The notes: generated by a model from the sequence alone, not told the origin. Positions 1 to 15,404 are shown, counted from the first letter of the stretch. The stretch: 32,000 nt of DNA from an uncultured archaeon (GCA_964648855.1 CAZYLT010000022.1:260-32259); one strand, 5' to 3'. A program made the numbers and translations.

Positions 1-1
1 C

Positions 2-196
2 ATTACAGAGATCGAGGTGGCTCAGTTCTTTGAAGGGCAACAATTCGTTGACATGTCAACTCGAACGCGGCATCCAGCAAAGGTTGCCTTGAACAAGGTG
101 AACGATGTTGAGCTTCCAGTGGAGATTCTTGGATACAATCGTCTGGCAGGATGGCTGCAGCTCAGGGCTTATGCCGCAAAATGGGGTGAATATTGA
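2..196 (+). CDS. 3' end of a hypothetical protein (5'-partial, runs off window)
   Basis: Frame 2 is open from base 2 to TGA 194-196: ITEIEVAQFFEGQQFVDMSTRTRHPAKVALNKVNDVELPVEILGYNRLAGWLQLRAYAAKWGEY*. Composition is protein-like; family not recognised. Confidence 0.55.
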   Translation: MTEIEVAQFFEGQQFVDMSTRTRHPAKVALNKVNDVELPVEILGYNRLAGWLQLRAYAAKWGEY

Positions 197-506
197 AACC
201 CCCACTTGTGTGGAGTCTCCCCTCTTTAGGAATGGCGCTAGGGATAGCACTGAAATCGTCGGTCTGCATGATAAGGCATCCGCCGCCCCCGCGTATATGG
301 GAGAATGGCCTCGTTGCACCCAGTGGAACTAGAGTGCAAAGGTGTTAGTAATCTCTTACTGGATTTTTTGAGAGGCAACATCCTAAGATTCGCTGTTCTG
401 TGTCAATTTCTTGAGTCTATATATGGTACCTTGGAAATAGGAGAAAGACTCTTTGGGAAATAAGCAACATATCTCTTCTAACAAAGAATTAGCATAGAGA
501 ATGAAC

Positions 507-653
507 TCATTCTAAGCCAGTATTTTTGGCGTAGTCGTCTTCATTGGATTCTGCTGCTGTAGTGTTTTTGTGCTGTTGAAGTTCGTCGCCTATCTATTCA
601 AGCTCGGCAAGCTAATCTTCAGAAACAGTCTTGTCTGGACTGGCCGAATCCAT
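507..653 (-). pseudogene. Small acidic ORF remnant with two internal TAG codons
   Basis: ATG at 653 directly follows the TAG of 654..890 in the same frame: MDSASPDKTVSED*LAELE*IGDELQQHKNTTAAESNEDDYAKNTGLE*. Confidence 0.3.
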
Positions 654-890
654 CTACGCCAGCACCCCCGTTGGCTCTTTTCCGACAGCCACATCTTCAT
701 CGGGCTGGCTGTCATGTTCTATTAGCACGTCCTTGATGCGTTGCCATTTTTCAAAAAATAGCATGGGAAACTCATCCTGGCTCAGTCCGGGATTGTGGGG
801 AATCCCCATCTCATCCTCGTACTCTTCTTTCATCTGGTACCATTTCGCCTTCGTCTCCGGCTTCATGTACCATCTGTCGTATTCTGGCAT
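654..890 (-). CDS. Small ribbon-helix-helix-like / antitoxin-like DNA-binding protein
   Basis: 78 aa with a strand-helix-helix pattern (YDRWYMKPETKAKW..MKEEY...LSQDEF..LFFEKW) typical of archaeal MGE RHH proteins. Divergent from the wHTH gene. Confidence 0.5.
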   Translation of the reverse strand: MPEYDRWYMKPETKAKWYQMKEEYEDEMGIPHNPGLSQDEFPMLFFEKWQRIKDVLIEHDSQPDEDVAVGKEPTGVLA

Positions 891-1025
891 GTGTTTAACC
901 TACCGGATTTCACGTTTTGATATGCATCAGATAGGATACACCTACTAATAAGCCTAGCGCATATCCATATGTGAAAAACGCAACGTGAATTTCTTGGGAA
1001 AAGGGTAAAGCGGAGATATGGTTCC

Positions 1026-1322
1026 ATGTTATTGATTTTCATGACGCTGGAACTTCTGGAGCAAACGGGTGCTCTGCGCACATTAGTCAAAGTGTATGAA
1101 AGGCCCCGATTTATTACGGAACTTGTGAGGTCCTCCATTAATCCGGAAGGAATAGCAAGCCTTGATTCTATAATGAAAGTGCGCGAGAAACTAGGAGAGC
1201 TAGGCCTGATCCGCGAGGAGATGGAGGAAGGCGCCCGCCCAAAGACGTTCCTGGTCATCACCGAGAAGGGGAAAAAGGTAGCCGAGAGGCTCAGGGAGAT
1301 ACAGGAGATATTGGGGGATTAA
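1026..1322 (+). CDS. Winged helix-turn-helix transcriptional regulator (MarR/PadR/HxlR-like), copy 1; likely start ATG 1041
   Basis: LGELGLIREE...RPKTFLVITEKGKKVAERL is the wing + 'LTEKG' signature of MarR/PadR-type wHTH. Confidence 0.85.
   Translation: MLLIFMTLELLEQTGALRTLVKVYERPRFITELVRSSINPEGIASLDSIMKVREKLGELGLIREEMEEGARPKTFLVITEKGKKVAERLREIQEILGD
1203..1322 (+). repeat. Direct repeat copy A (3' end of wHTH gene)
   Basis: 120 nt matching 3696-3815 with 17 mismatches by manual alignment, mostly at third codon positions. Confidence 0.9.
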
Positions 1323-1323
1323 G

Positions 1324-1992
1324 TTGGAGGAAAAGAGAAGCCACAATAGGAATGCATCTGGAATTAGATCAGTTTTATTAGAAAAATATTGGTCTGCTAA
1401 AAATGGTCTAGGTCTGCTTGCAATTATGGGCATAACATTGGGGCTTGTTGCCTCTTCTAGCGAATTATGGTTATCAAATGAAAGCTCTCTATTTGCAAGA
1501 TTCACATCTTTCGAACATTCAGTGTTTTACGTCATTATCACGGGGATTATTCTCTTCATCTTGTATTACTATGACTGGAAAAGGACTGTAACTCAGAAGA
1601 GTTTGCTCAGAAATGCTTTCTATTCTCTTGCGTGTGCGCTTCTGGATTTATTCCAAATGTGGTTAGTTATCATGTTTTCCTTTCTCCTTCTAAATGAGCT
1701 CACTCTTTCAAATTTTCATCTGTATTGGAAACTTTTTTATCTCACTATGCCGCTCACAATCGGGGAGTTCGCCTTGTCTTCAGCTCTGACTAATCTTCTT
1801 CAAAAAGCCAAAAATTTGGAGAGAAGATCCCATGAGCATGAACAGAAGATCGTCGAGACGGCCAAAAGCTTACAGGATGTCGTTGTGCCACCAGCACCAG
1901 ATATCAAAGAGGACAGTGAAAGGCTCCAAGACTACCTTAGTAAAAAGAAGAGAGGGGAGAGAAGCATTGGAAACCGAACGGAAGAGAAATGA
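1324..1992 (+). CDS. Membrane protein (about 4 TM helices) with C-terminal coiled coil
   Basis: Four hydrophobic segments followed by a charged heptad-like tail. TTG start 2 nt after the wHTH stop. May be the 5' half of a frameshifted gene with 1832..3445. Confidence 0.7.
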   Translation: MEEKRSHNRNASGIRSVLLEKYWSAKNGLGLLAIMGITLGLVASSSELWLSNESSLFARFTSFEHSVFYVIITGIILFILYYYDWKRTVTQKSLLRNAFYSLACALLDLFQMWLVIMFSFLLLNELTLSNFHLYWKLFYLTMPLTIGEFALSSALTNLLQKAKNLERRSHEHEQKIVETAKSLQDVVVPPAPDIKEDSERLQDYLSKKKRGERSIGNRTEEK

Positions 1993-3445
1993 AGAGATTG
2001 AAGGTATTCTTTCATCGTTGATTGAAACAACTGAGAGATTAGAAAATGTACAGAATGAAATTATGGAAGATAATTTGAATCCCATAATTGAAAAGATGAA
2101 AACTATCACAGATAGAATTCAGGTTCTTAGTGATTCGACCGGCCAAAACAAGGCTGTAATTGTTGAATTGCTTGATGATTTCCAGCAGTTCAGAGCAGAT
2201 TTTGACTCTTGCAGCTCTAGATGCGGAGGAATTCCCAATGAAGAAACTGCAGAAGAGGTCAAGAAGCTATTTGATGATGTAGATGAATTGATTGATGATG
2301 GAAAAACCGACCAAGCGCTTGCATTAGCCTATGAACATAGAGTCAAGCTCAAAGATTCCTGGGATTATTGGATCAAGCTTGGGTCGAGATATAGCGGTGC
2401 CAATGAAAACGAAAAAGCAAAGAAGGCGTTCGAGCAGGCCATAAAACTAAAGCCCGAGGAATTTCTTTCTCATTGTCAGTATAGTGGTCTGATTAAAGTA
2501 ACTGAAGGCCCTGAGAAGGCATTATCCTATATCAAAGAATTCGTAAAGAGTGTGCCTTTGAGGGGGTGTCATGTCTTCTATAATGCACTGGGATGGTTAT
2601 TAATGGATGTTGCAGAACCCAATGATGTAGAGGATATTGTTTCAAATATTACGAACCCCGATTCTCCCGAATGCACTCCCTGCGTCCAAGCATTTCTCTA
2701 TTCCAGAGTAAACATGGATTCCAAAGCTATCTCGATAATTTCAGACCATGATGTTTCAGATTGTGCCATTTATCCTCTCGTTAAGACAGCCATCCACGCA
2801 AAAGCAGAGGTCAAAGAAGGCTTAGAAGATATGGTGAAGTCTGCAAATGTTAGCAAGGATCCAGACCCATTTGAAGTTAGCCTTCTAATTATGATTTTGC
2901 AGAATGTTGGTCGTTCTTTAGATTGCGATCCGACACTAAAATTTGTGAAGAGAGTCAAAAAGAGATTCAAGTCAGAAAAAATACCTGAAGATAGGCAAGG
3001 AGCGTTGCATGAGTATTCTGCATACGCACTTATGGGTGCAGGGTGCAAGAATTTTGAATTCATCTCAAAACTCCAAGATATCGCATTAGAAACGCATGAG
3101 TGCTCATCGCTTCGTTATGATAGAATAATCTTGAAACTCATGTCAAAGCAATACAATAAGGCAGCGGAAGAGGCCAGAGAGGCACTGGATAAATACGATG
3201 ACGATGATTGGATTTTGCTGGCTTCAATTGACGCGATATCTCGTTCCGAGGAGCCGACAGATCTATCAAATCTCTATAAGAAGGCACTGGACATGAAGGA
3301 AATTACCACAAGCAAATACAGACTAATGGTCTTGAAGAATTCAGCGATAAGAATGGATAGCCCATTTCTCTCAGATATTGAAACCTTGCTCAAGAAGATT
3401 GGTGCCTCAGATGAGGATGCGTCTGGTAGTTCTGAAACTAAATAA
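1832..3445 (+). CDS. Coiled-coil + tetratricopeptide-repeat protein (true start probably TTG 1967, or fused to upstream ORF)
   Basis: TPR motif WIKLGSRYSGANENEKAKKAFEQAIKLKPEE plus further helical repeats. N-terminal coiled coil. GAGGGG at 1952-1957 precedes TTG 1967. Confidence 0.75.
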   Translation: MSMNRRSSRRPKAYRMSLCHQHQISKRTVKGSKTTLVKRREGREALETERKRNEEIEGILSSLIETTERLENVQNEIMEDNLNPIIEKMKTITDRIQVLSDSTGQNKAVIVELLDDFQQFRADFDSCSSRCGGIPNEETAEEVKKLFDDVDELIDDGKTDQALALAYEHRVKLKDSWDYWIKLGSRYSGANENEKAKKAFEQAIKLKPEEFLSHCQYSGLIKVTEGPEKALSYIKEFVKSVPLRGCHVFYNALGWLLMDVAEPNDVEDIVSNITNPDSPECTPCVQAFLYSRVNMDSKAISIISDHDVSDCAIYPLVKTAIHAKAEVKEGLEDMVKSANVSKDPDPFEVSLLIMILQNVGRSLDCDPTLKFVKRVKKRFKSEKIPEDRQGALHEYSAYALMGAGCKNFEFISKLQDIALETHECSSLRYDRIILKLMSKQYNKAAEEAREALDKYDDDDWILLASIDAISRSEEPTDLSNLYKKALDMKEITTSKYRLMVLKNSAIRMDSPFLSDIETLLKKIGASDEDASGSSETK

Positions 3446-3497
3446 CCCTCACCTCATTTCCGATACTACCGTTGGGCAACCTATGATTTCGATGTGA

Positions 3498-3815
3498 ACG
3501 GGTGATTCAAGGAGGTTTAGAACGAAGCCTATTGCCAGAACAAATGAAATACCGGGAGCTCTTCAACTGCTCATTTCACTTTATGAAGAGCATAAATACA
3601 TCACATTAGTTCTGAAAAGCAGTAGTAATCCGAAAGGCTTCATTTCCCAAACAGCCTTGTACGAAGCAAGACGCGAGCTAGGAGAGAAGGGTCTTGGCCT
3701 CATCCGCGAGGAGATGGAGGAGGGCGCCCGCCCCAAGACCTTCCTGGTCATCACCGAGAAGGGGAAGCGGGTCGCGGAGAAGCTCAAAGGGATTCAGGAG
3801 ATATTGGAGGAATAG
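3498..3815 (+). pseudogene. Second winged-helix regulator copy lacking a canonical start (missed by ORF track)
   Basis: Open frame from 3498 to TAG 3813-3815: ...NEIPGALQLLISLYEEHKYITLVLKSSSNPKGFISQTALYEARRELGEKGLGLIREEMEEGARPKTFLVITEKGKRVAEKLKGIQEILEE*, colinear with 1026..1322. No upstream in-frame ATG/GTG/TTG. Possible ATT start at 3531 after GGAGGT 3511-3516. Confidence 0.8.
3696..3815 (+). repeat. Direct repeat copy B (3' end of wHTH gene)
   Basis: ggcctcatccgcgaggagatggaggagggcgcccgccccaagaccttcctggtcatcaccgagaagggg... matches copy A. Confidence 0.9.
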
Positions 3816-4038
3816 CAAGATAGGTGCATTTCTCCATGAATTATGTGGATAATTCAAATATCAGTGGAAATATGGCTAAGGAGCATTTTGAACTCATATG
3901 AGGACCATATTTACACCCGCAAATAACATAAGGGCGCATAGAATAGTAAGTTTATTAGAAAGAAGGTGGAGCTAGGCATATGTCGAAGATTGATTTTGAA
4001 TATCATCGCCTTTTTACAGATAACCGGGGTGTTAGAGT

Positions 4039-4416
4039 ATGACCGAGAAGAAAATAATAGCCAATTTCAACTATGAATACTCCCCTGAATACAAGGAGTA
4101 TTATGCAACAGGTGCTAGAGGCGGAATAATTAACGGATATCATTATCATCTGGAATTCTATAGAGAGACACAACATATCTCTACTCAGCAACAATTGGTG
4201 GAAACTTCAGAGGGAAGAAGGGTTGAAGATATTTCCGACGTAGAACCCCCAGTTATTCAGAGAGAATTCTTGTTTGGCCTGAACCTCTCATTTCATGCTG
4301 CTTTTGAACTATATCAGTGGCTAGGAGCAAAATTATCCGATATGGCCAATATACAATCGCGGACTCTTGAAGCACTAAGAGAGTCTGTGCCCACGGGTGA
4401 AACTATGGATGAATGA
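4039..4416 (+). CDS. DUF3467-like small protein
   Basis: Pattern EYYATGARGG...LEFYRE...QREFLFGLNLSFHAAFELYQWL resembles DUF3467-type proteins found in TA/defence-like loci. Confidence 0.55.
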   Translation: MTEKKIIANFNYEYSPEYKEYYATGARGGIINGYHYHLEFYRETQHISTQQQLVETSEGRRVEDISDVEPPVIQREFLFGLNLSFHAAFELYQWLGAKLSDMANIQSRTLEALRESVPTGETMDE

Positions 4417-4915
4417 GCAGGCATCAATATATCCTAGAGAGGAAGATACGAGCAGGGAGCCAACCCTTACCCCCCTGACAAAAGGATATACTTCATCGGA
4501 AAGTTTTCTCATCATAACTGATTCTGATAGGGATCAAACACATATTGCTCGCTATAGCGATGATGCTTTGTTCCGTAGACCTCTTGATACCAGCACAATC
4601 ATTTTGGAGGAAGTCAAAAACCTGAAGAAAAAGGTAGCTGGATTAGAGGAAGCGGTTGAGGTTCTTAGAAGTGACATGGACAGTCATTTAGGTGTCACAA
4701 GGAGCTACTACAAAGACCTTTCTCAAGCCGAGATAAAGGAAATAATCAAAGATCATATCGAAGAAGAGGGGAACTTTTGGCCGGATGAGCTCGCTGAAGA
4801 ATACAACCTTAGCGTCTTGGCTGTCATGGAAGCAATTGACGAGCTTGTCGAGGAAGGGGTTCTTGAGAGGAAGAACAAGAATGACGTACCCAGACGAACT
4901 ACCAGGGGAAATTGA
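4409..4915 (+). CDS. Hypothetical protein: disordered N-terminus, coiled coil, C-terminal winged HTH (antitoxin/regulator-like)
   Basis: ATG 4409 overlaps the upstream stop. LEEVKNLKKKVAGLEEAVEVL coiled coil. FWPDELAEEYNLSVLAVMEAIDELVEEGVL is wHTH-like. Confidence 0.7.
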   Translation: MNEQASIYPREEDTSREPTLTPLTKGYTSSESFLIITDSDRDQTHIARYSDDALFRRPLDTSTIILEEVKNLKKKVAGLEEAVEVLRSDMDSHLGVTRSYYKDLSQAEIKEIIKDHIEEEGNFWPDELAEEYNLSVLAVMEAIDELVEEGVLERKNKNDVPRRTTRGN

Positions 4916-5267
4916 GGCAGAAGTTGTTACCATTGCGTGTAGGCAGACAAGCCCCCGGCAACTGCCACATGAAGCAGTCGATCGCGATGTATATTTTGAA
5001 AGGCGCGTAATTCTCATCTTTCCTGAACCTTATGGAAAAAAGGAGACCTCTTGATTGAATGGTGAAATCTCCGGAAAACACGGCCCTTTTGAGTGTGTAG
5101 CAGCAAGATATGAGAAGCTTAAACGAAGGGGATTGCAGCCACCTGGAACGCATCATTATCAAGAACATACGATAGAAGGAGTACGAATTAGAGAGATTTT
5201 CCCTTATGGGCCCAGAAAATCGCATATGAAAACCCCACAAGAAATTCTATTAGAAAGCGACAACTAG
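4881..5267 (+). pseudogene. Third gene of the operon, interrupted by a single in-frame TGA (5052-5054)
   Basis: ORF-track entries 4785..5054 and 5055..5267 abut in the same frame: MTYPDELPGEIEAEV...YGKKETS*LNGEISGKHGPF...LLESDN*. Confidence 0.55.
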
Positions 5268-5404
5268 GCCACGCTGTAATTCATAAGTTTCATTCTTTCG
5301 ATTCTAAGTACATACACCAAAAATAGTACCTGAATCCCATTCTCTGAGGTTCATATCGGAAGAACACCTAAGTGCTAGTGTAGCTAATTGCCAACCGTGG
5401 TACT

Positions 5405-5872
5405 ATGGAGATTCAGGAACAACAACCAGTATTCAGCCGGTCTGAGAAGTTTGAAATCAACGATATCGAGTTCAGAGAGATTACGATAAACAATTACAGG
5501 CTACAAGCAGAGGGTAGATCATGGACACGCTTCGTGCTTAGACTATCCTTCATCGGCGGAGCCTGGATGGAAAAATGGAGACGGTTTGGTGCAAAATTGC
5601 TCGCGGCAGGGATACTGATGGTGACGTTCCCTCTATTTCTGGGCCCAGTCCTAGGTCTGGGTCTCTTATTCTGGTATTATAGTGGATCCCAGATTCTTTC
5701 CGTGATGTTCGTCTTTGTAGGTATGGCATTGATTGCCATCTGGGTTGTATTCAAGAGGGAGGCAATCAAGATCTACACGCCATCCGAGACCTTCAAGATA
5801 GAAGGGTCAGCAGGCTTCATAGAGGCGGTCTGGGGGGCAATCATGGCACGTCAAGCGTCAAGGGATATCTAA
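5405..5872 (+). CDS. Membrane protein, bacterial-PH-like beta domain interrupted by a 2-TM hairpin
   Basis: Beta strands (EITINNYRL...FVLRLSFIGGAWME), two TM helices, then AIKIYTPSETFKIEG and a terminal helix. This is the split-PH architecture. Confidence 0.6.
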   Translation: MEIQEQQPVFSRSEKFEINDIEFREITINNYRLQAEGRSWTRFVLRLSFIGGAWMEKWRRFGAKLLAAGILMVTFPLFLGPVLGLGLLFWYYSGSQILSVMFVFVGMALIAIWVVFKREAIKIYTPSETFKIEGSAGFIEAVWGAIMARQASRDI

Positions 5873-5877
5873 AACCA

Positions 5878-5910
5878 AGAGGCTCAGGGAGATTCACGAG
5901 ATACTAGGAG
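5878..5910 (+). repeat. Direct repeat copy C (33-bp remnant of wHTH 3' end)
   Basis: agaggctcagggagat is identical to 1285-1300 (16/16), extending to 28/33 versus 1285-1317. Translates RLREIHEILG versus RLREIQEILG. Confidence 0.75.
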
Positions 5911-5921
5911 GGAAATGGACA

Positions 5922-6563
5922 TTGTATGTAATAGCTCGTTTGTATGGCAATCGTGAAAAACAGATAGAATGGCATCAAGGATTGAGAGCGCCCCTCAAGA
6001 ATTTGATTGATAGTGGTGTCATAAAACGTTTTGTTATGACCTATCATGGAGATAAGCTCTATCTCTGTCTTGAGTCGCTCGAATTGATTGAAGATACTCT
6101 CGAACATTTAATGGTAGCCAGTTCATTCAGTGCCATCACCAACTATCTGATTGAGAATGTTGGAGAAAAAAGCATTGAGACATCTAACTATGAATTCGAG
6201 GTTCGGGACTCAATTCTTGCCACACTGAGGAAAAAAGGAGTCCAAAATCCCTCAGATGCCTTTGTTTCTGAACTGACTAAAAGGCAAATCGATAATGCAT
6301 CGCGTGGATCCAAAGCGGCTATGGAAATACTCTCACAAGACCCAGCTGATATTTCTGACTGGAATTCACTGACATACGCGGCCTTTAAGAAATGCCATCC
6401 CCTAAATGAAGGTTGGTTCATCTCTGATTCAGCGCATTTTTGCTTCAATTCACTAGGATTGTCAAATCAGGAGGAAGTTGCCTGTAGAAGCCTATTCGAA
6501 GTAATTAACAGTGTGAATAGCGCTGTGAGAAATCTTTTTGACCGGGAAGATTGGAAAACATAG
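5922..6563 (+). CDS. Hypothetical protein distantly similar to lantibiotic dehydratase C-terminal / thiopeptide-type domain (PF14028-like)
   Basis: Motifs IKRFVMTYH..KLYLCL, NYEFEV and SAHFCFNSLGLSNQEE echo WFFIRY..HLRLR, YEPE and HMxxNRLGxxxxxE. SD GGAGGG at 5907-5912. Confidence 0.5.
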   Translation: MYVIARLYGNREKQIEWHQGLRAPLKNLIDSGVIKRFVMTYHGDKLYLCLESLELIEDTLEHLMVASSFSAITNYLIENVGEKSIETSNYEFEVRDSILATLRKKGVQNPSDAFVSELTKRQIDNASRGSKAAMEILSQDPADISDWNSLTYAAFKKCHPLNEGWFISDSAHFCFNSLGLSNQEEVACRSLFEVINSVNSAVRNLFDREDWKT

Positions 6564-6619
6564 AAATTAGAGAAATGTTAAGAAACGAAGAAGAATGACT
6601 ACAGCTCTTCATCGATGTC

Positions 6620-6991
6620 TTATTCAGGAGGAGTAACTCGGACTGTTTCAGTAGAGCGAAGCGTCCACTTGTTATCATATTTGACAAATACCTTCAAAGT
6701 GAAATCAGATGACGTACTAAGACTCCCGGTATGTCGAACTCTTAGTACCGGATTCAAAAAATTCGTATTCTGACAGTTGATTATTAATCTGTGTTTTGGC
6801 CGAATTTGTTCAGTCACCATTCGGAGGTCCTCTTCAAGACGAATTTTTACTGTGGGGGGGCATTCAAACTTCATTTTATACTCATTCAAACCCGGTCCAT
6901 TTTCTGCTTCGATATACAAGACCATAGGATACCATCCGATAATTGTGGGAAATGAGCCAAGCTCATAACCACAAGAACGTCGAAAAAACAT
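6620..6991 (-). CDS. Hypothetical all-beta protein (possibly 5'-truncated)
   Basis: 123-aa ORF with alternating hydrophobic strand pattern. Starts right at the putative island junction. Confidence 0.45.
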   Translation of the reverse strand: MFFRRSCGYELGSFPTIIGWYPMVLYIEAENGPGLNEYKMKFECPPTVKIRLEEDLRMVTEQIRPKHRLIINCQNTNFLNPVLRVRHTGSLSTSSDFTLKVFVKYDNKWTLRSTETVRVTPPE

Positions 6992-7002
6992 CCTAATGTT
7001 GA

Positions 7003-7281
7003 CACATTTCTGGAATTATCACATCTACGCTCGCTGCAATGGTCCTTTGGTCTGAGCGAAACAATGCAAATCACAAGCAACTCTACATAGCTACGTGTAT
7101 TGTATTTCTTCTCTGTGCTGCCTCCAATGTCTTTGCCTTTCTTAGGAATATCGAATTCATTCTATACCAGACAATATATACCAGCAATCCGCTTTTCATT
7201 CCAAATTTCATTGCCTGTGGAATTATCAGACCCATTCTCTTATTCGCGATTTTCTTTCGCAGGATTTCCCAACTTCCGTAA
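7003..7281 (+). pseudogene. 5'-truncated paralog of membrane protein 7489..8148
   Basis: STLAAMVLWSERNNANHKQLYIATCIVFLLCAASNVF aligns with TIVGLTLWTAASNSTRPIFFEFAAFVIPVASILHF, with similar distance to the stop. The frame is closed upstream by TGA 7000-7002. Confidence 0.45.
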
Positions 7282-7488
7282 ACTAAGGCCCAAATAGATA
7301 ATCTGCTGCGATATTAAGTCAGCTGCAAAATAATCTCCAGCGCGGCGCTCTCCCTCAACACTAAGTATTATATGAAAGACATTGGGGTTCGTAAATGAAT
7401 ACGGTTTCCGTTCTACTTGATTCACTATGAAAATTAAAGAACAATTCACGACAATCAGGCTTTTCACTTCATGATATGGTGAATAGAA

Positions 7489-8148
7489 ATGGAGTCTCAC
7501 ACACAGGAGAACGAATTCGGAACAGAATCTCATTCAGCAAGGCTAGAGTCACCTAAGAAATACTTGGAATACGGACTATGTGGATCTATTTTCATGTTCG
7601 TTGGTTTTGTGGTTAGTCTATTCCTAGCGTATAGGGAAATATTGCTTCCTGAAGGTGGAATAATTCTGATACCAGTATCAAGTGGCTTGACCACTGTGTT
7701 CGCTGTCCTGTATAATGGTCTATTCTGGCAAGCTTTCAAAGCATTCAACGACAAATCCCCTAACAAGTACGCAACCATAGCCTCGGAGGGATTCTTGCTT
7801 CTGCTTGTCGTTGCTCTTCTGCAAATTGCCCTTGGTGTTATTGATCCAGTAATTGGGCTGTTTGTTGTCAATATAGCTCGTGTTTTCGTGTGGACGATAG
7901 TTGGACTCACTCTTTGGACCGCAGCCTCCAACTCGACACGGCCAATATTCTTTGAATTTGCAGCGTTCGTGATTCCAGTTGCGAGCATTCTTCATTTCAT
8001 CACAAACTCGATTCCACTACTAATGGAGGACAGGCATTTCTACACGGCTCTGTTTGGCACCTATTTGTATAACATCGGTGACTACGTCTTCATCGTAGCT
8101 GTATTCTTTCTAGTATTCTGGGTCAAGTACAGGGAATACCCACGCTAA
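7489..8148 (+). CDS. Polytopic membrane protein (about 6 TM), unknown function
   Basis: 219 aa with multiple hydrophobic helices. GGTGA SD at 7478-7482. Confidence 0.8.
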   Translation: MESHTQENEFGTESHSARLESPKKYLEYGLCGSIFMFVGFVVSLFLAYREILLPEGGIILIPVSSGLTTVFAVLYNGLFWQAFKAFNDKSPNKYATIASEGFLLLLVVALLQIALGVIDPVIGLFVVNIARVFVWTIVGLTLWTAASNSTRPIFFEFAAFVIPVASILHFITNSIPLLMEDRHFYTALFGTYLYNIGDYVFIVAVFFLVFWVKYREYPR

Positions 8149-8244
8149 CGACATATATTGCCAAGATTTGAGCTAACAGCTGGATAGTTATACAGTGTAG
8201 TTTAAAACTGATGTCCGACAACGAATTTACATTGGGGGTAAGCT

Positions 8245-9183
8245 GTGTTGCAGAAAGAACAACAATTGTTCGCATCTCGGTTCAAGAAGCGCATGGACGC
8301 GGCTTCACAGGAGCGAGTGCGGATTGTTATCAAAGAGCAATATAAGGACGCATTTGAGGTCTTGGAAGACTGCGAGAATGCAGGTCTAATTCCCGGAATT
8401 GTGGGTCCTCCTGGAGTTGGTAAGACTCTACTTCTACGTGCCTATGCGGAGAAGAGTAAGAGAAGTTTTCACTGGATTACGGGTGACGAAGGTGTGAGAC
8501 CATCTCATTTGATTGGCTCATTCAATCCTGCACTTGTATTGCAGAAGGGATTCAATCTCGAGTCATTTGAACCCGGACCGCTGCTGAAATCTATGGTCTT
8601 TGGCTCAGTCTTTGGTCTAAATGAGGCCAATCGATTGCCTGAATATGTTCAAAATTCTCTTCTGGAACCCTTCGAAGAGCGGTCAGCCAATGTCCAGCGG
8701 TTAGGCAGAATCCAGGCTGATGAGGACTTCTTCCCCGTACTTAGCATGAATCCTGAAGAGATGGCAGGCGCTCACAGGCTAAGCGAGGCGCTAAGAGACC
8801 GGATTAGAGTATGGATAAAGCTTGGCTATCCACGAAAGGCCACGGAAATCGAAATCGTGAAAGTGAACTGTCCGGAGTATAATTTATCAGATCATGTGCT
8901 GGGCCAGATTTACTCGCTTGTTTCGGCCACTCGGTCCTCAACTGATATTGAGATTCCCGCATCAATTCGAGCTGGTATTTCAATAGCCCGATTGAGTGCT
9001 GAGATGGCTAAGAGGCAAAAGATGAAGGAGATAGACCACAATACTCTCTCCACGGCTGCGCATTATGTCTTGGTAGGTGCACTTCGATTCAGACCTGGCG
9101 TAGATTCTGAACCGGCGGTGAACGCATTGGTGAGACGGGTGCTTGGAAGCAAGAGGAGCGCTGAGAGTGGCAAGTCAACCTAA
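8245..9183 (+). CDS. MoxR-family AAA+ ATPase
   Basis: Walker A GPPGVGKT, Walker B variant FGLNEANR, MNP sensor, LSEALRDR arginine finger, SIR lid motif. Confidence 0.92.
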   Translation: MLQKEQQLFASRFKKRMDAASQERVRIVIKEQYKDAFEVLEDCENAGLIPGIVGPPGVGKTLLLRAYAEKSKRSFHWITGDEGVRPSHLIGSFNPALVLQKGFNLESFEPGPLLKSMVFGSVFGLNEANRLPEYVQNSLLEPFEERSANVQRLGRIQADEDFFPVLSMNPEEMAGAHRLSEALRDRIRVWIKLGYPRKATEIEIVKVNCPEYNLSDHVLGQIYSLVSATRSSTDIEIPASIRAGISIARLSAEMAKRQKMKEIDHNTLSTAAHYVLVGALRFRPGVDSEPAVNALVRRVLGSKRSAESGKST

Positions 9184-11659
9184 AATCGAATCCACCATGG
9201 AGAATGTTCCTGAGTTCTCCCATGAGTTTGTGACTCGTATGCGTCGGTCTGAAGAGGTCAGACTTTATCCGAGTGTTCGCCAGACTCAGGCCATCCCGAA
9301 GTTTCTGTCCGCCCGATACTTCAAGAAAGGCGAGCTGTCTCTGGACGATTTTGTGGATGCCGCCGTGTTTACAACTCATCCACCGGATCAGAAGATTGCG
9401 CGTGAAATCGCTGAGGATATTCTCCTTGGGCGAGAGAAGCCAAAACCAGTGGCTGCCAAGGTCAAAAAGGAACAACCCAAAGCCACTGCTCCAAATGCCA
9501 GTCACATACAGTCCGTCATAGACCAAATAATTGCAGAACAAGAGCTTGCAGCGAAAATTCAACAAGATAAGGTCGAGGAGGGCTATGCCTATCTTCAAGA
9601 ATTGCGAGAGAAACAGAACAAACAGCTGCATTCTGCAGCTATGGACTACTTGAACGAGGGGGATGTCGTCTTGCAAGGCATATCCTCTGATTCTGAACTG
9701 AAGCAAAAAGCCTCAGACGAGCTAATGCAAGGCACAGGAAACCTAAGCCACAAAGACATCCTGAATGCAGAAGCACTAGACTCTCTAGATAGAGTTTGTG
9801 ATTCCTCTTTCGAGGCTGAACAAATAGCTGCACGAGCCTTGCGTGGAGACACTGATGTAGAAGACAGATTCTCTTCCCTTGCAGATCGTGATCCCTCCTC
9901 GGCAGCTCAGTCTCTAAGACTCATGGAAGAGCTCCAACGAATATCACAGGACATGCTCAAAGGCATGGATAAGGAGCTGCAAATGAGGCTCAAGAACCTC
10001 GACGAGGTTGCGGAATATTCATCGAAACTAGAGAGAAGTCCCGACTCATTACAACAACATGTGAAGTCTGCACACCAAGAATACTCACTGAGTGATGCAA
10101 TGGAAATGGCATCAAGTATTGAATCAGCTACTGTTGACAGAGTCGGTGATGATATAATGAAGTCATATGCAGACTCTTACGAGCAGGGTGCTCGAGACAA
10201 GGTTGATTTGCGTCAGCTTGCTGAGAATCATCGCAATACATCTAGTTGGAACAACCTCGTGGACAAGGTTACTGATGATATTGTGTCCAATGCTGATACT
10301 CGGTCTGCTCCTTCTGAATTTCTAAAACAGAAGATCAAAGAGATGATGAATCTCAAGAGTAACATTACCAGCCCACAATGTGGGTATAAATGGCAGAAAC
10401 GCATGCAGAAGCTTGCAGATGAAGTCATGGGCAGATCCCCTGACAGAACTCATCTACGACAGAGCGTAAGGCAATGTTCGTCAATGGGTGCACCGGCCTC
10501 TCAGGAAGCCGTTACTGAAGCCGGTAGACGGGTAGGAATGAGCGATACCGAAATTCAGGAACTGCTGAATCCATCTTTTGAGGTCATCAGGAAACTCATA
10601 CAAGCCGGAGTTGCGGATTTTAACAGGCTTGATAGTCTGGTATCTCAAGCAAGTCTGTCACACGAACAATTGAGAACCCTTGCTGATATGGCACATGAGA
10701 GGGGTAATCAAAACGCGTTAGGTGCAATAGGTCATCACAATTTGCAGGCGGCAATGGGGCAATCGGGACGAGGAATGCATGGCGTAAATCAAGAGAGAGC
10801 GAAGTCCGTATTTGGTGGTCTCATGGGTGGGCCGGCATCAAATGTGATTCGAATATGGTACTCATATCGGGACGAACTGCCTCCAGAGTTGCGACGGCGT
10901 CTAAAGAAAATCGCCAGCCAACTCCTCATTGACCTCGGGCTTAGATACTCACGACAGACTATGGGATCATCTATGCTAGGTGGGATTCAGGAATCGACCA
11001 CCGTTCGGCCGTTTCGCATCGGAGACGATATTGACCTTATCGACTTGGAAGAAACAATAGATTATTTGCTATCCTCTGGAAATACTAATTTTGGCTTTGT
11101 GAGCCCTGAGGATTTCCTGATTACTGAAACATACCAGGGGCACAGGGCATTTTACTGGGCTCTTGACAAATCAGGCTCAATGGACAGCCCTGAGAAACTT
11201 GGTATGTTGTCTATTTCCGTCATGGCCGGGCTATATGGAGTGCAAAAAGATGACTTCGGTGTTGTTCTCTTTGATAATGAAACCCATATTGTAAAAGAAA
11301 TCGCTGACAAATCCGTTTCAGTGAAGAAAGTAGCGGCAGACTTGCTTGAGGTTCGTGCTAGTGGAGGAACGGGAGGTCGACAATCGATGGAACTTGCTCT
11401 CCGGAATTTCGAAGATACGCGAGCAAAGGAGAAGGTATTCATCTTCAGTACTGATGCTTACCTCTCCGATCAATCAATCTGTGAGGATTTGGCATCCAAG
11501 TTCAAGCAACAAGGAATCGAAATGATTATTCTCGTTCCTCCGTCTTCGTACGATAGTCGAGCTGCTGAGAAACTAGCAGAGAAATCTCATGGCGCCGTCT
11601 TAGATATCGCATCTATCGAAGAACTGCCTGAAAGACTGCTTAAGCTGACTAACTATTAG
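9143..11659 (+). CDS. Large VWA-domain protein, MoxR partner (probable start ATG 9197)
   Basis: C-terminal MIDAS LDKSGSM, GGT, FSTD. Preceded by RPFRIGDD..IDLEETI (CoxE/ViaA-type motif). Follows the MoxR gene. Confidence 0.9.
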   Translation: MEARGALRVASQPKIESTMENVPEFSHEFVTRMRRSEEVRLYPSVRQTQAIPKFLSARYFKKGELSLDDFVDAAVFTTHPPDQKIAREIAEDILLGREKPKPVAAKVKKEQPKATAPNASHIQSVIDQIIAEQELAAKIQQDKVEEGYAYLQELREKQNKQLHSAAMDYLNEGDVVLQGISSDSELKQKASDELMQGTGNLSHKDILNAEALDSLDRVCDSSFEAEQIAARALRGDTDVEDRFSSLADRDPSSAAQSLRLMEELQRISQDMLKGMDKELQMRLKNLDEVAEYSSKLERSPDSLQQHVKSAHQEYSLSDAMEMASSIESATVDRVGDDIMKSYADSYEQGARDKVDLRQLAENHRNTSSWNNLVDKVTDDIVSNADTRSAPSEFLKQKIKEMMNLKSNITSPQCGYKWQKRMQKLADEVMGRSPDRTHLRQSVRQCSSMGAPASQEAVTEAGRRVGMSDTEIQELLNPSFEVIRKLIQAGVADFNRLDSLVSQASLSHEQLRTLADMAHERGNQNALGAIGHHNLQAAMGQSGRGMHGVNQERAKSVFGGLMGGPASNVIRIWYSYRDELPPELRRRLKKIASQLLIDLGLRYSRQTMGSSMLGGIQESTTVRPFRIGDDIDLIDLEETIDYLLSSGNTNFGFVSPEDFLITETYQGHRAFYWALDKSGSMDSPEKLGMLSISVMAGLYGVQKDDFGVVLFDNETHIVKEIADKSVSVKKVAADLLEVRASGGTGGRQSMELALRNFEDTRAKEKVFIFSTDAYLSDQSICEDLASKFKQQGIEMIILVPPSSYDSRAAEKLAEKSHGAVLDIASIEELPERLLKLTNY

Positions 11660-11663
11660 TTTC

Positions 11664-12395
11664 CTAGGGAGTAAAGCCAGTTTTTCCAGTCAATGATTTT
11701 TCGTGAGCTTCTGAAACCCAGAACTTGTAGGCGCAGGGATATTCATCACGCCCCAAGTCTAGGAATCTATGGGAAAAGAGCCCCCTTAAAAGGCGCATGT
11801 ATCTGTAGAAAGTGTCATCTTTGCTCACAACCTCTGCGATTGCATTAATCTGATAGCTCATGGCATTTGGTCTATCCCTTGAACGCCAATAGAATCCGAG
11901 CGTTACTCTAGGATCGTTTAGAATGTTAGAATACGTGGCATCCCCATACATCTCAACCGCTCCAATTCTGAACCTGTCGATTTTCTTATCATCAATGAAG
12001 AGGTCTCTGTAGAACTGAACTCTATCTTCAATGGACTCTTCAAAAGGCACGCCTTGGAAGCTGAGGATTTTGCCTTCTATATCGGCAATCCTTTTTTCAA
12101 GCTCAGCATCTGTGAGAGTCAACCGGATTATCTTTGTAGCGACATTGACAGGGTAAGGTCGATGTATGTCAAAAGTACAAACTGCAGGTTTCATTACTGT
12201 ATCTCTATAGACTGACCCAAGGTTTGTTGCTACAGGTTCATCACCAGCAAGAGCCGCTGCTATCTTCTTGTACAACGGATCAGGTATGGCATTCAATGGA
12301 TACGATAGAACGATATCTCCCCTCTCCACCTCTATTTTCCTTAGTTCTCGGTCTATGAATCTTACTCGAGTTTCTTCCCTCTGCATCCTCATCAC
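11664..12395 (-). CDS. Pyridoxamine-5'-phosphate oxidase-like (FMN split-barrel) protein, paralog 2
   Basis: GAVEMYGDATYSNILNDPRVTLGF...SYQINAIAEV matches the 'T.xN+.xNP.+.L.F' split-barrel motif. Confidence 0.75.
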   Translation of the reverse strand: MMRMQREETRVRFIDRELRKIEVERGDIVLSYPLNAIPDPLYKKIAAALAGDEPVATNLGSVYRDTVMKPAVCTFDIHRPYPVNVATKIIRLTLTDAELEKRIADIEGKILSFQGVPFEESIEDRVQFYRDLFIDDKKIDRFRIGAVEMYGDATYSNILNDPRVTLGFYWRSRDRPNAMSYQINAIAEVVSKDDTFYRYMRLLRGLFSHRFLDLGRDEYPCAYKFWVSEAHEKSLTGKTGFTP

Positions 12396-12457
12396 AATGC
12401 TTTCTATTTTCTCACTATGGAAGACAATATGGATTTATGACATAAATTACTTGCTGG

Positions 12458-13192
12458 TTAGTGGGAAAAACCGGTTGAGCTTGTTAGGCTCTTGTCTAAA
12501 ACCTCTGAGATCCACGTCTTGTAGGCACAGATGTATTCCTCATGCTCCAAGTCCAAGAAACGTCTAGAAAATAAGGACCGCATAACACGCATAAAGCGAT
12601 AAAATGGATCTCCTTGTGGGATAATTTCGACTAGGCAATTTATCTGAAATCCTAGAGACCTCCCAGTGGATGAGTCATACCAACTAAACGCGAGGGTACA
12701 CCTTGGATCCCTGCGCAGGTTATTATAAGTTCTCGAGCCAAACATTTCAGCGATACCCAATCGCATTCGGTCTATTTTCCTGTCGTCGATGAGTAATTCC
12801 TTGTACAGTTCTATTCTCTCGGAGATAGTTTCTTCAAAGGGTCTTCCTTGAAAGGTAAGCATCACACCTTCAATCTCGTTGATTCTCTTCTCAATCTGGT
12901 CGTCTGTGAGAGTCAGTCTAACAATCTTTGTAGCGGCATTTACACCAAAGGGAGTAAGTTGCTCATTTGAAATGACAGCAGGCTTGTAGACGCCATTCTT
13001 CACCATTTGGCTGTAAATATGCATCGGCGCCTCAGAACCATCAACTAAGGTAGCTAAGGCGTCATAGAGCGACTCCGGGACCGCATTCAAGGGGTAGTTG
13101 AGTTGGAGCTCGCCATAATCAAATTCGATTCTCCTAGAGTCCCGGTCAATGAATCTTATGATTCCTCTGTTCGGAGAATTCACCTGCATCAC
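12458..13192 (-). CDS. Pyridoxamine-5'-phosphate oxidase-like (FMN split-barrel) protein, paralog 1
   Basis: AEMFGSRTYNNLRRDPRCTLAF...GFQINCLVEI. Colinear full-length paralog of 11664..12395. Confidence 0.75.
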   Translation of the reverse strand: MMQVNSPNRGIIRFIDRDSRRIEFDYGELQLNYPLNAVPESLYDALATLVDGSEAPMHIYSQMVKNGVYKPAVISNEQLTPFGVNAATKIVRLTLTDDQIEKRINEIEGVMLTFQGRPFEETISERIELYKELLIDDRKIDRMRLGIAEMFGSRTYNNLRRDPRCTLAFSWYDSSTGRSLGFQINCLVEIIPQGDPFYRFMRVMRSLFSRRFLDLEHEEYICAYKTWISEVLDKSLTSSTGFSH

Positions 13193-13341
13193 CTGAGCTT
13201 TACGCTAACATCTGTACACAGTATTTTCCACACTATATCTCATTGTATTACGCGTACATTTCCCTCATTCTCTTTGCTCTACATAAAAGATAATCAAATA
13301 AAGGGCCTTGCGATTAGTGGATACTACTAGGTAGTGATACC

Positions 13342-13620
13342 ATGCTGGATGCCTATGAAGTGGACTCGGATGCTCAACTGGTGGATATAACCACCGAAAC
13401 AATCACACTAGACACTTCGAAAGTTATCGTGGTTATCGACCATGATAATAAGACCGTCTATCTGTGGAGGGGCAAAAAGGCTAGTCTCTTCAAGAAATTG
13501 ATGGGGACGCGCGTGGCTGCAAAACTCTCACACGAATACAAACACTATCGGATTCGACCTATTGCTGAGGATCAAGAGCCATCTGCATTCTTAGACCTCG
13601 TTGACGAGGTTCATCACTAG
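13342..13620 (+). CDS. Single-domain gelsolin/cofilin-fold protein (Asgard proto-gelsolin type)
   Basis: LDTSKVIVVID...VYLWRGKKAS...AAKL...IAEDQEPSAFL matches the gelsolin repeat consensus (L.s.dvf+lD...++.W.G..s....A..l.....eg.Ep..F). Confidence 0.85.
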   Translation: MLDAYEVDSDAQLVDITTETITLDTSKVIVVIDHDNKTVYLWRGKKASLFKKLMGTRVAAKLSHEYKHYRIRPIAEDQEPSAFLDLVDEVHH

Positions 13621-13705
13621 TTCTAGGTCATGACCGATATAGTGATGAGGAAGTAATCGCGATTATTCTCGGGTTAGAAAACTGAAGTTCAACCGCCGTG
13701 CCTAT

Positions 13706-13942
13706 TTGGTCAAGGTCAGGAATGTTCAGGCCGGGCTCAACACCCGAACCAAAATTCTAAAGCATTTGAATTTCAAGAGATGGACTTCAGCTGGTGAGAT
13801 TGCAGAGAAGATTGATGTCACCTATAATACCATTCTCTATCATCTGAAGAATATGCAGGCTGAAGGTACTGTAACAAAACAGAAAGACGGTCCTGGCTGG
13901 AAACTTATTCAGACAGGACAGACTGAGTTGACTGAATACTGA
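13706..13942 (+). CDS. Small winged-helix (ArsR/HTH_24-like) DNA-binding protein
   Basis: TRTKILKHL...SAGEIAEKIDVTYNTILYHLKNMQAEGTV. Confidence 0.85.
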   Translation: MVKVRNVQAGLNTRTKILKHLNFKRWTSAGEIAEKIDVTYNTILYHLKNMQAEGTVTKQKDGPGWKLIQTGQTELTEY

Positions 13943-13990
13943 ACACAATATAACTTGCATTATTTGTGTGAAAAGACTCTCAGGTTATCC

Positions 13991-14021
13991 GAAGCGTAAA
14001 TCCTATAGCGGGTTTCGCTTC
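13991..14021 (+). other. Intergenic stem-loop
   Basis: gaagcg-t-aaatcc / gggttt-cgcttc with loop tatagc, between the wHTH and SnoaL genes. Confidence 0.4.
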
Positions 14022-14041
14022 CAGTTAGTATTGCTGAACAG

Positions 14042-14452
14042 ATGATGAATGAAGATGAGCTATTTGAGTTCTGTGAAGAATGGTTGTCGACTTGGACGGG
14101 GAACCAGCCGGAAGAGTTGATTAGATTCTATTCGGAAGATGCCCTATACGTTGACCCTGCGCATCGAGAAGGACTCAAGGGACATGAGGATATTCTTCAA
14201 TATTTTGAGAGATTGTTAAGGGTCTATCAGGATTGGAGATGGAAGCCAATCGAGGTGTTTCCAATAAAAACTGGTGGAATTGTCAAATGGGAATGTGAGA
14301 TTCCTGTTGGTCAAGAGGTTCTGCACGAGGTTGGAATCGACATTGTTGAAATTGAAGATGGTAAGATAACACGCAATGAGGTCTATTTTGATAGAACACG
14401 CCTGCTCGCTGCGGTGGAGAGGAAGAAGCAGCTAGAGCGATTACGATTTTGA
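14042..14452 (+). CDS. NTF2-like / SnoaL-family protein
   Basis: WLSTW...LIRFYSEDALYVDP...GLKGHEDI...GIDIVEIEDGKITRNEVYFD. Confidence 0.9.
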   Translation: MMNEDELFEFCEEWLSTWTGNQPEELIRFYSEDALYVDPAHREGLKGHEDILQYFERLLRVYQDWRWKPIEVFPIKTGGIVKWECEIPVGQEVLHEVGIDIVEIEDGKITRNEVYFDRTRLLAAVERKKQLERLRF

Positions 14453-14459
14453 TACCATG

Positions 14460-15404
14460 TCAATCCAATTCATAAATAGCATCCGCATTTTTCCAATACA
14501 TTTTATCTAATACCCGTCTGGGCAGATCAAGTCCATTGATGTAAGTGCCTCCTTTGCCAACAGTATCCTGATCCACAAATGGCAAAGGCACACCCCGAGC
14601 ATCGGTCTCCCAGATCATTCTCTCAGTGTAGTGTCTACCTTCGTAGTAATCTTCGTTCATAGTTCTGGCAACACAATCGGTACCATAGAGTATTCTGTCC
14701 GAATGTTTGATTATAATTTCTCTGGCCTTCTCGGGGGCTTTGCCCAGCTCTCTCGCCATCCATCTAGCACTACTGGTGTCAACATGTAGGTTTGGATATT
14801 GGTCAAACATTCTGGCGAGATTGTCTAGACGATGGGGCTCTGCTTGAGCACCAAAATGCGCCTGTTGAAAGACTACGTTACTGCTCCTCTTCAGTCTGTT
14901 TTCAAACTGCTCTAGGTGTTCATCCTTTGTGCCATATTGATTGCTGTCTGAATATCGATTCTCAAAATAGGTATCAGGGTCTGCAATGTGAATCAGAAGT
15001 GGCAATTCATGTTCTGCAAGTGCATGAAATAATGGGTCAAAAATTGGGCTGTCTACTGAAGGGACCTTCTCTTTTTCTAGTCTATCAGACCAGAATGGTG
15101 CAAAGTGCATTTTTACCAGACTGTATCCATCTTCGCGAAGGTGAGCCACTTCTTTCATAGACGGTTCGGGTCCTTCAGTGAACAATCTCCATCCTGACAT
15201 GTATTTGGCAAATACGAACCGACCCGGATACATATCCTCATAGGCATCAATTTCATCCCCATGCACTATTAGGATGGATTTCTCTGTCCCATATTTTTTG
15301 CCTACTTCCACGAATAGCTTGAGCGCCTCCAGTTCGATTACATGTGCATGAGAGTCAAATATCGGCCCAGTATATTTGTAATCGATTCTCGGATATTTCA
15401 TCAA
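14460..15404 (-). CDS. Amidohydrolase_2-family metal-dependent hydrolase
   Basis: IFDSHAH, LLIHIAD, AHFG, VDTS, DRILYGTD, KMYWKNA motifs. Confidence 0.9.
   Translation of the reverse strand: MMKYPRIDYKYTGPIFDSHAHVIELEALKLFVEVGKKYGTEKSILIVHGDEIDAYEDMYPGRFVFAKYMSGWRLFTEGPEPSMKEVAHLREDGYSLVKMHFAPFWSDRLEKEKVPSVDSPIFDPLFHALAEHELPLLIHIADPDTYFENRYSDSNQYGTKDEHLEQFENRLKRSSNVVFQQAHFGAQAEPHRLDNLARMFDQYPNLHVDTSSARWMARELGKAPEKAREIIIKHSDRILYGTDCVARTMNEDYYEGRHYTERMIWETDARGVPLPFVDQDTVGKGGTYINGLDLPRRVLDKMYWKNADAIYELD

Follow-up and report, generated by a model that had tools for sequence, protein, structure and literature searches.

How does one short piece of a regulatory gene come to stand several times in a row, each time ahead of different genes? 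The question is raised by a 32,000-nucleotide (nt) stretch of DNA from an uncultured archaeon (GCA_964648855.1, CAZYLT010000022.1:260-32259), here called the window, in which three copies of the 3' end of a gene for a winged helix-turn-helix (wHTH) regulator each head unrelated genes, referred to below as cargo. The arrangement recurs in related Thorarchaeial elements, where the 3' end of the regulator gene forms one edge of a variable slot that is filled with different genes from locus to locus. The following paragraphs describe the repeat and the slot, and then weigh by which process such a slot may have been loaded.

An initial annotation, made from the sequence alone, had placed the three repeats, and their positions hold. 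Nucleotides 1200-1321 (copy 1) and 3693-3814 (copy 2) are 86% identical, and 34 nt of copy 3 (5875-5908) match 1282-1315 of copy 1 at 85% identity. Copy 3 is the sole other match in the 3.1-Mb host genome beyond weak noise (blastn E 3e-4), and it is also detected at 5876-5910 by a DNA profile made from 21 wHTH 3' ends (E 7e-4 for the loci and 5e-3 genome-wide). The match is significant against shuffled controls, its ungapped score of 20 being reached in none of 300 dinucleotide shuffles of 3816-9000 (maximum 14). The three-copy repeat is real and non-random. As had also been proposed, copy 3 lies in frame with the TTG at 5922 and supplies the Shine-Dalgarno (SD) sequence of this open reading frame (ORF), its codons ILGG giving GGAGGG (5907-5912) 9 nt upstream of the start. 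At copy 1, a spacer of 1 nt separates the stop codon (1320-1322) from the TTG of the first cargo gene at 1324. Behind copy 1 follow a membrane-protein and TPR-protein pair and then a four-ORF module, and a third cargo gene stands behind copy 3.

Copy 2 had been described as the 3' end of a start-less gene. It indeed has no ATG, GTG or TTG start, but it is more than a 3' end, namely a complete 97-codon paralog whose frame is open from 3498. Where its ortholog on a metagenome contig (L078) has ATG, copy 2 has ACG (3522-3524), and where L078 has ATGATG it has AGGAGG (3511-3516); either the canonical start has apparently been lost, or ACG 3522 may be used behind a perfect SD sequence. The two orthologs share 81% nucleotide identity over the whole gene, and since their ratio of non-synonymous to synonymous substitution rates (dN/dS) is 0.12, the lineage of copy 2 must have been functional for most of its history. 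The 5' half, correctly noted at the outset as much more diverged from copy 1 (only 46% nucleotide identity, compared with ~86% in the 3' part), belongs to a separate conserved lineage, as the existence of the ortholog supports. The 17 differences in the 3' part, initially characterized as mostly synonymous, comprise ~10.5 synonymous and ~6.5 non-synonymous changes. A downstream similarity of L078 to cargo 1 was rejected as an off-frame extension of the wHTH match.

The sequence of copy 2 is furthermore a mosaic. Its 3' repeat contains a copy-1-like tract of ~57 nt (~3699-3757, 19 to 24 codons). Upstream of this tract, informative sites are L078-like or copy-1-like in a ratio of 66:9, and inside it in a ratio of 1:11 (Fisher p 6e-8). 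Synonymous divergence (dS) changes at the same place, between copies 1 and 2 from 1.48 upstream to 0.36 in the tract, and between copy 2 and L078 from 0.59 upstream to 1.24 in the tract. Sequence has passed between copies 1 and 2 by gene conversion.

The slot itself is best seen in the relatives, for which its state was determined by six-frame hidden Markov model (HMM) and DNA-profile scans of all fetched loci (L numbers). Their elements share a triad of a divergent gene for 71-78 amino acids (aa; f71), the wHTH gene and a convergent gene for 65-73 aa (f73). Among relatives with an assembled core, f71 heads an operon that starts with a ParB-like protein of 600-715 aa (L024, L065, L096 and, in part, L026 and L027); in the core of L024, the PHROGs families gave only ParB-like and integrase matches and no virion hallmarks. 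The wHTH gene and f73 bracket 0 to 7.4 kb of differing content, thus forming a variable slot between conserved genes. Five sites are empty, with the wHTH stop abutting or overlapping the f73 stop (contig C51 of the window's own genome, L027, L094, L095 and L097). Other sites are occupied but free of scars, including L063, where four defense genes abut f73, and the similar L062.

In further loci, 5'-truncated copies of the wHTH gene, here called remnants, delimit the inserted genes. An intact wHTH gene in front of and a 5'-truncated copy behind the insert are found in the window, L024, L026, L064 and L096. Locus L024 carries the wHTH gene, genes for 244 and 243 aa, and then a remnant that abuts f73 just as in the empty sites, while L026 has the wHTH gene, a small ORF, a restriction-modification (R-M) module, a remnant and then homologs of the 244/243-aa pair, and L064 the wHTH gene, two genes and a remnant. 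A remnant, cargo and a second remnant abutting f73 follow each other in L058 and L069, and two remnants stand in tandem in L060. One intact wHTH gene and four remnants precede f73 within 7.4 kb of L096 (Ga0315284_10000039, 7430-15896). This is the largest array seen, with five modules that include a minus-strand operon with an N6_N4 methylase.

The content of the slot is variable, as had been expected of the downstream neighbors: at least nine different immediate neighbors stand behind 12 intact wHTH genes. The cargo families nevertheless recur, in different orders and combinations, among them a 155-aa protein (five times), the 244/243-aa pair (four times) and a 284-aa protein (twice). The membrane and TPR pair occurs twice, in the window and on G082:C51, where it too stands between wHTH 3' copies (proteins 34% and 28% identical). 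These comparative data support the initial view of the wHTH 3' end as a handle which delimits stacked and shuffled cargo in a Thorarchaeial mobile element. The junction of the wHTH stop and the f73 stop is best read as the accessory-gene slot of this element family. In the relatives, the slot cargo includes N6_N4 methylases with an MvaI/BcnI nuclease, GmrSD_N, HEPN RiboL-PSP and a CyanoTRADDas_TM protein, by which a defense-rich slot is supported at the level of predicted families. A defense hotspot, as had been proposed, is plausible for the relatives, with their R-M, GmrSD and HEPN genes. In the window, no cargo gene matches a known defense family, and a PADLOC search of nine cargo and flanking ORFs of the island gave nothing below E 0.009.

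Our preferred answer, held with slightly less than even confidence, is a regulator-anchored accessory slot that is loaded by homologous exchange in the conserved wHTH 3' end. Related elements would diverge widely and yet all share ~90-190 bp, encoding the wing and the C-terminal helix, as well as f73. Crossovers in both of these arms would swap cargo cleanly, and the scar-free L063 and L062 look as expected from such double crossovers. A single crossover in the wHTH 3' end alone would insert a module, supplied for example by a circle or by a co-resident relative with a partial wHTH copy. Such an insertion would rebuild an intact wHTH gene before the module, and the displaced, 5'-truncated 3' end would stay behind the new cargo and keep the old downstream junction. 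Repeated events would yield an array of intact gene, cargo, remnant, cargo and remnant, in which copy 3 of the window would be the oldest remnant, and the copies would keep exchanging sequence via gene conversion. Since the last wHTH codons (QEILEE: CAGGAGAT..GGAGGA) read as an SD sequence, DNA landing behind a copy would be plugged into a translation signal.

Homology-driven exchange is favored, firstly, because the scar-free swaps point to the use of both conserved flanks, and secondly, because the remnants vary in length from 35 nt to the whole gene, with 5' limits that range from codon ~1 to ~86, and conversion tracts exist. It is also favored because neither the cassettes nor the host genome encode a recombinase: no recombinase gene was found in seven bracketed cassettes, and the tyrosine recombinase family PF00589 has no match anywhere in the host genome, which is 94.6% complete. 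Moreover, fragments of the f73 3' end lie beside wHTH remnants in L058 (18029-18073), L040 (1638-1733) and L026 (8464-8607); a full f73 lies 1-2.5 kb beyond them, and their HMM matches are weak (E 8e-4 to 0.02). They hint that the same scar-leaving process may act on the other flank of the slot as a mirror event, which likewise argues for exchange by homology.

The remnants are strongly polar. The 3' end is retained in about 30 copies and the 5' end in a single one (G010). Biased detection does not explain the skew, since the HMM would give an N-terminal fragment a higher score. Neither f71 nor a core fragment was ever found beside internal wHTH copies. The remnants examined keep a stop at or within a few codons of its native position, with the exceptions of window copy 3 and L067, and the sequence upstream of them is full of stops. 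An intact gene and the remnants in its locus share 80-91% identity, compared with 58-77% between loci, and the remnants of G082 are 93-97% identical to the intact gene on another contig of that genome. Although the adjacent cargo proteins have drifted to 28-53% identity, the remnants are still recognizable, a persistence that neutral decay would rule out and that requires renewal or homogenization.

Several observations weigh against loading by homologous exchange. The repeat encodes the most conserved region of the wHTH protein, so that part of the similarity of the 3' DNA is plain purifying selection. Some remnants are orthologous between genomes, which makes all event counts upper bounds. 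In L096, the identity of the remnants to the intact copy is only 58-62%; these remnants fall into different sub-lineages and resemble leftovers of different donors. The repeat of L096 also runs ~30 nt past the stop, with a palindrome included, and is hence not simply conserved coding sequence. No polymorphic or circular forms of a module were seen among the assemblies. Finally, the breakpoints of remnants with different upstream flanks cluster at ~-84 to -78, ~-58 and ~-38 nt from the stop, a near-coincidence not predicted by pure homology, and wHTH copies have a tyrosine integrase at a distance of 0.6-8 kb in L024, G015:C119, G005:C27 and G082:C51. In three loci this distance is 7-8 kb, and integrases are absent from several loci.

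These last points bear on a second explanation, site-specific accretion, in which the tyrosine integrase of an element would act in trans on a core in the wHTH 3' end as the attachment site, while modules without an integrase, each bringing a replacement 3' end, would integrate there and leave the displaced original 3' end at their far side. Phage 21 behaves in this way at icd, and tandem accretion among elements that lack an integrase is known from arrays made up of ICEs (integrative and conjugative elements) together with cis-mobilizable elements at the 3' end of fda, and from tycheposon arrays at tRNA genes. There, too, repeated use of one site leads to arrays of partial 3' ends that delimit modules. 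The target in the present case is, however, the element's own regulator rather than a host housekeeping or tRNA gene, and the modules are 0.3-4 kb long and lack an integrase, with remnants of 35 nt to the full gene. A documented precedent is the integration of e14 at the 3' end of icd, with a substitute 3' end and icdC as the displaced copy (PMC13626634, citing Hill et al. 1989). The topology is alike, an intact gene being followed by inserted DNA and then a 5'-truncated 3'-end copy, and the duplicates likewise differ mainly at silent sites (PMC13626634).

Apart from this shared topology, the clustered breakpoints despite unrelated upstream flanks and the nearby integrases in four loci, site-specific accretion could account for the repeats of L096 and L102, which extend ~30 nt past the stop with an ATCCTA-N2-TAGGAT palindrome. 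However, this palindrome has a 2-nt spacer, occurs in the divergent promoter region as well, and fits an operator better than the core of a tyrosine recombinase. The cluster near -80 coincides with the start of an ultra-conserved KTFLVITEKG block and may in part be a detection effect, and the 5' limits of the remnants as a whole are spread over most of the gene. No integrase lies in or beside the seven bracketed cassettes, and no second wHTH 3'-end copy, which would mark a whole-element attachment site, was found past the integrase in L065 or L066. Taken together, we regard site-specific accretion as rather unlikely, though as an explanation to be reckoned with.

A third explanation needs no dedicated process. 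Paralogs or elements placed in tandem by duplication and illegitimate recombination would have decayed, while selection would have preserved the 3' ends because they serve the following gene as its ribosome-binding site or promoter region, or f73 as its 3' untranslated region or terminator. The last wHTH codons do supply an SD sequence, not only at copies 1 and 3 but also on contig C4 and in L078 and L079; remnants that abut f73 overlap its 3' flank; and substitutions in remnants look roughly neutral, with, for example, six amino-acid changes among 12 nt differences in L026. The high conservation of the 3' part of the protein fits as well, and lone units of a remnant and f73 (L061) could result from simple erosion of the left side; for lone remnants, passive decay with selection on the 3' end is possible. 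Random erosion should, however, have left some f71 or core fragments at internal copies. Passive decay also does not explain why the same cargo families occur in different orders and with different partners, or why remnants outlast the divergence of their cargo, and the mosaic tract of copy 2 shows exchange between copies. A 30-to-1 skew would be extreme for selection alone. As a general explanation, passive decay appears improbable to us. That the array is a chimera of related elements or strains joined at a shared 3' end by the assembly can be dismissed almost entirely, even though the metagenome-assembled genome (MAG) consists of 62 contigs with 4.75% contamination and contigs C22, C4 and C16 all break at the island, because copies 1 and 2 agree exactly over no more than ~26 nt in a row, copy 3 is only 35 nt long, and at least eight independent assemblies (NCBI, JGI, ENA, Logan) have the same architecture.

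The preferred reading, homologous exchange at a regulator-anchored slot, invites comparison with systems that gather accessory genes. The array had initially been called integron-like, and it shares with integrons a platform gene, a one-directional stack of unrelated modules bounded by one recurring sequence, and an expression signal supplied from the platform side. The analogy nevertheless fails on all three defining features tested. No IntI-type recombinase lies beside the array, in line with the lack of PF00589 in the host genome. No attC-type hairpin was found in copies 1-3 and two foreign remnants (folding z-scores -1.2 to +1.8, with copies 1 and 2 folded on both strands). The modules, instead of being single ORFs in one orientation, hold one to four genes; those for R-M in L026 and L096 are encoded on the opposite strand, and some cargo begins with a TATA-like box and palindrome of its own. 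In addition, and unlike in an integron, a second conserved gene, f73, closes the slot. Integrase independence, also proposed at the outset, can be no more than a conjecture, given the integrases near the wHTH copies of relatives; the window's genome has none, but its island is a relic.

Phages and ICEs offer a further parallel. Accessory and defense hotspots include rexAB behind cI in lambda as well as those of P2/P4 and SXT/R391. In these as in the present family, a variable slot lies between two conserved genes and directly behind a regulator of the maintenance state, and it is loaded with genes such as those for R-M, type IV restriction (GmrSD) and HEPN proteins found in the relatives. The differences lie in the Asgard host and in an uncharacterized element family with a ParB-like protein and a tyrosine integrase, in which no virion hallmark was found. 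We know of no description of such hotspots leaving serial truncated copies of a flanking gene. The element and repeat architecture appears neither in a paper on Asgard mobile elements (PMC8813620) nor in one on ANME-1 hotspots (PMC13385816). What is new here is a variant of 3'-end-targeted accretion or of an accessory hotspot in an unexplored host lineage; both kinds are already known.

The regulator that anchors the slot is predicted to be PadR/MarR-like. An AlphaFold (AF2) model, with 24 family members as input and a mean predicted confidence (pLDDT) of 87, shows a wHTH fold that includes a wing and ends in a long C-terminal helix. Among structures in the PDB (Foldseek, TM score ~0.6-0.7), PadR, MarR and HxlR-type regulators come closest, with 4ejo (PadR), Rv0880, QsrR, YodB and AF1382 as top matches, and these share the predicted wHTH with a beta-hairpin wing and C-terminal helix. 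In contrast to them, the present family stays below threshold in Pfam (all matches below gathering score, the best being ArnR1-like_WHD with 18.4 bits against a cut-off of 26) and is restricted to Thorarchaeota-type sequences. It comprises 22 proteins, only two of them with a source name, both from Candidatus Thorarchaeota MAGs. The repeat spans the wing (residues 62-78) and the C-terminal helix (80-97).

Putative operators may link the regulator to the cargo in some lineages. Palindromes of the type ATCCTA-N2-TAGGAT lie in the divergent region between f71 and the wHTH gene of five relatives, and the same palindromes occur 15-45 nt past an intact or remnant stop in L096, L063, L060 and L098, in some cases immediately after a TTAAATA box, and L064 has two further ones within its cargo region. 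Sites of this kind (ATCCTA-N2-TAGGAT or TAGGATA-N2-TATCCTA) are found in L096 (7921-7934, 8312-8325, 13683-13696), L026 (1082-1095), L065 (10237-10250), L064 (10159-10172), L097 (3868-3891), L063 (10275-10290), L060 (3598-3613) and L098 (727-742). The palindrome is probably an operator common to the switch and to cargo promoters, and in relatives with such sites past the stop, the cargo heads appear to carry the putative operator of the switch. In the window, the palindrome CATATCCATATG differs from that of the relatives and occurs once, in the divergent region; TAGGATA or CATAT-N2-ATATG operators at the cassette heads of the window were rejected, since TAGGATA is scattered and the palindrome is confined to that region. 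Table 1 lists the features of the window.

Table 1. Features of the island and its right edge in the window (positions counted from the first nucleotide)
Feature	Position	Strand	Remarks
Tail of fused ORF remnant	2-196	+	1009-aa gene (5' end) fused to 379-aa gene (3' end)
f71, 78-aa gene divergent from wHTH gene	654-890	-	Conserved switch partner
Divergent f71/wHTH intergenic region	891-1025		Palindrome CATATCCATATG (960-971); TAGGATA half-site (932-938)
Copy 1, intact wHTH regulator gene, 98 aa	1026-1322	+	Possible alternative start ATG 1041
Repeat copy 1	1200-1321	+	Encodes wing hairpin and C-terminal helix; last codons are SD of next gene
Cargo 1a, 222-aa membrane protein	1324-1992	+	34% identical to 222-aa protein L058:8213-8878
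Cargo 1b, TPR protein	1832-3445	+	Pfam TPR matches; 28% identity over 438 aa to L058:8859-10373
Copy 2, full-length wHTH paralog, second lineage	3498-3815	+	No ATG/GTG/TTG start
Repeat copy 2	3693-3814	+	Holds copy-1-like conversion tract
Cargo 2a, 125-aa protein	4039-4416	+	Paralog on same-genome contig C29 (42%)
Cargo 2b, 172-aa protein, C-terminal wHTH-like region	4397-4915	+	GntR/HTH_24 matches below Pfam cut-off
Cargo 2c, 70-aa ORF	5055-5267	+	No homolog found
Cargo 2d, 155-aa membrane protein	5405-5872	+	Recurrent wHTH neighbor
Copy 3, 35-nt wHTH 3'-end remnant	5875-5910	+	Codons ~86-97; native stop lost
Cargo 3, 213-aa protein	5922-6563	+	No family found
123-aa ORF, right end of island	6620-6991	-	Convergent with array; not an f73 homolog
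Island right boundary (7008/7009) and 3' part of interrupted host membrane-protein gene	7009-7281	+	ORF 7039-7281

The cargo of the window belongs in part to families that travel with the wHTH gene elsewhere. The homolog of cargo 1a in L058 likewise sits behind a wHTH remnant. The true start of cargo 1b is probably at ~1945-1980, because the alignment with its homolog begins at residue 50. Cargo 2a has a weak homolog in the core operon of L024 (27%, E 3e-5). The family of cargo 2d is found in 10 places in 8 of 87 genomes, in half of these places just downstream of a wHTH copy, and in G074 (L064) the 155-aa protein is followed by a short wHTH remnant, as in the window. Exact-protein look-ups of cargo 1a and 2d for alternative arrangements in other assemblies returned nothing on record. 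Of the module labels given initially, TPR is backed by Pfam, but DUF3467-like and dehydratase-C-like have no Pfam support and were rejected.

The array is part of an island in a chromosome. The window lies on contig C22 of the host MAG. A same-genus sister genome (G076) shows homology to the window from 7009 onward, and its contig G076:C21 joins the exact end of host contig C16 to window position 7009 within one membrane-protein frame, from which it follows that window 1-7008 is an insertion splitting a host gene. Contig C16 ends (56567) in ...GTCTGGA and the window resumes with TCTGGAATTATC, an overlap of 6 nt at the junction. Ordinary chromosomal genes follow from ~8.2 kb onward, and the left end of the island is not assembled. 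The window has an f71 homologous to the divergent 71-aa gene of L024, L063, L064, L065, L066, L094, L096 and L097, but no f73 homolog, and a homolog of the ParB-like core of the relatives is missing from the host genome. The island is the relic of a Thorarchaeial integrative element whose core has been lost. Several relatives have only one PF00589 match, which is associated with the element, and these Thorarchaeia may lack a XerA-type recombinase.

At its left, the first 455 nt of contig C22 are a deletion fusion of two genes, for 1009 and 379 aa, that are intact on contig C4 of the same genome (1-4259): C22:1-271 is 93% identical to C4:1-271, and C22:270-443 is 73% identical to C4:4080-4253. 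Both contigs begin at the same homologous base. The 1009-aa family, which has no Pfam match, recurs beside wHTH remnants on G075:C14, on contig C28 of the host genome and in L079, there as a 1610-aa protein; G075:C14 is syntenic to C4, with a neighboring 230-aa protein that is 90% identical. Contig C51 of the host genome (L021, 5188 nt) has its empty site (399-701) beside a minus-strand cluster (1062-5046) with a PAPS-reductase-like gene, Cas6, a Cas5-like ORF, a Cas7/RAMP gene and two more ORFs, a layout which recalls CysH-associated type IV-B/type I CRISPR-Cas on plasmids; this short contig may be an episome. Farther along the window, in its chromosomal section, on the minus strand of 11664-13192, two adjacent ORFs of ~243 aa with weak PNPOx_N matches are paralogous and form a tandem duplicate.

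Carried to its full extent, homologous exchange at the slot would amount to a recombinase-free cassette system. Modules would be excised as circles and re-inserted by host homologous recombination, with the wHTH 3' end and f73 as portable homology arms, and each would be joined to the transcript and the SD sequence of the regulator and, in some lineages, to an operator-bearing promoter, making the slot the main route by which Thorarchaeial elements trade defense genes. We put this forward as a speculative extension that is more probably wrong than right in its entirety. If true, it would be a functional analog of the integron built from coding sequence. The mechanism of homologous exchange would show a coding 3' end acting as a cassette boundary, and would attest both gene conversion and the shuffling of modules among archaeal elements. 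The mobile elements and antiviral defenses of Asgard archaea have hardly been explored, and genetic manipulation is not yet possible in any member of the lineage. The slot markers, wHTH and f73, and the 3'-end remnants offer a sequence-only route to the accessory genes that Thorarchaeial elements exchange, several of them classical defense genes; of the many uncharacterized ones, the membrane and TPR pair, the 155-aa membrane protein and the 244/243-aa pair become candidate defense or exclusion systems by guilt of location.

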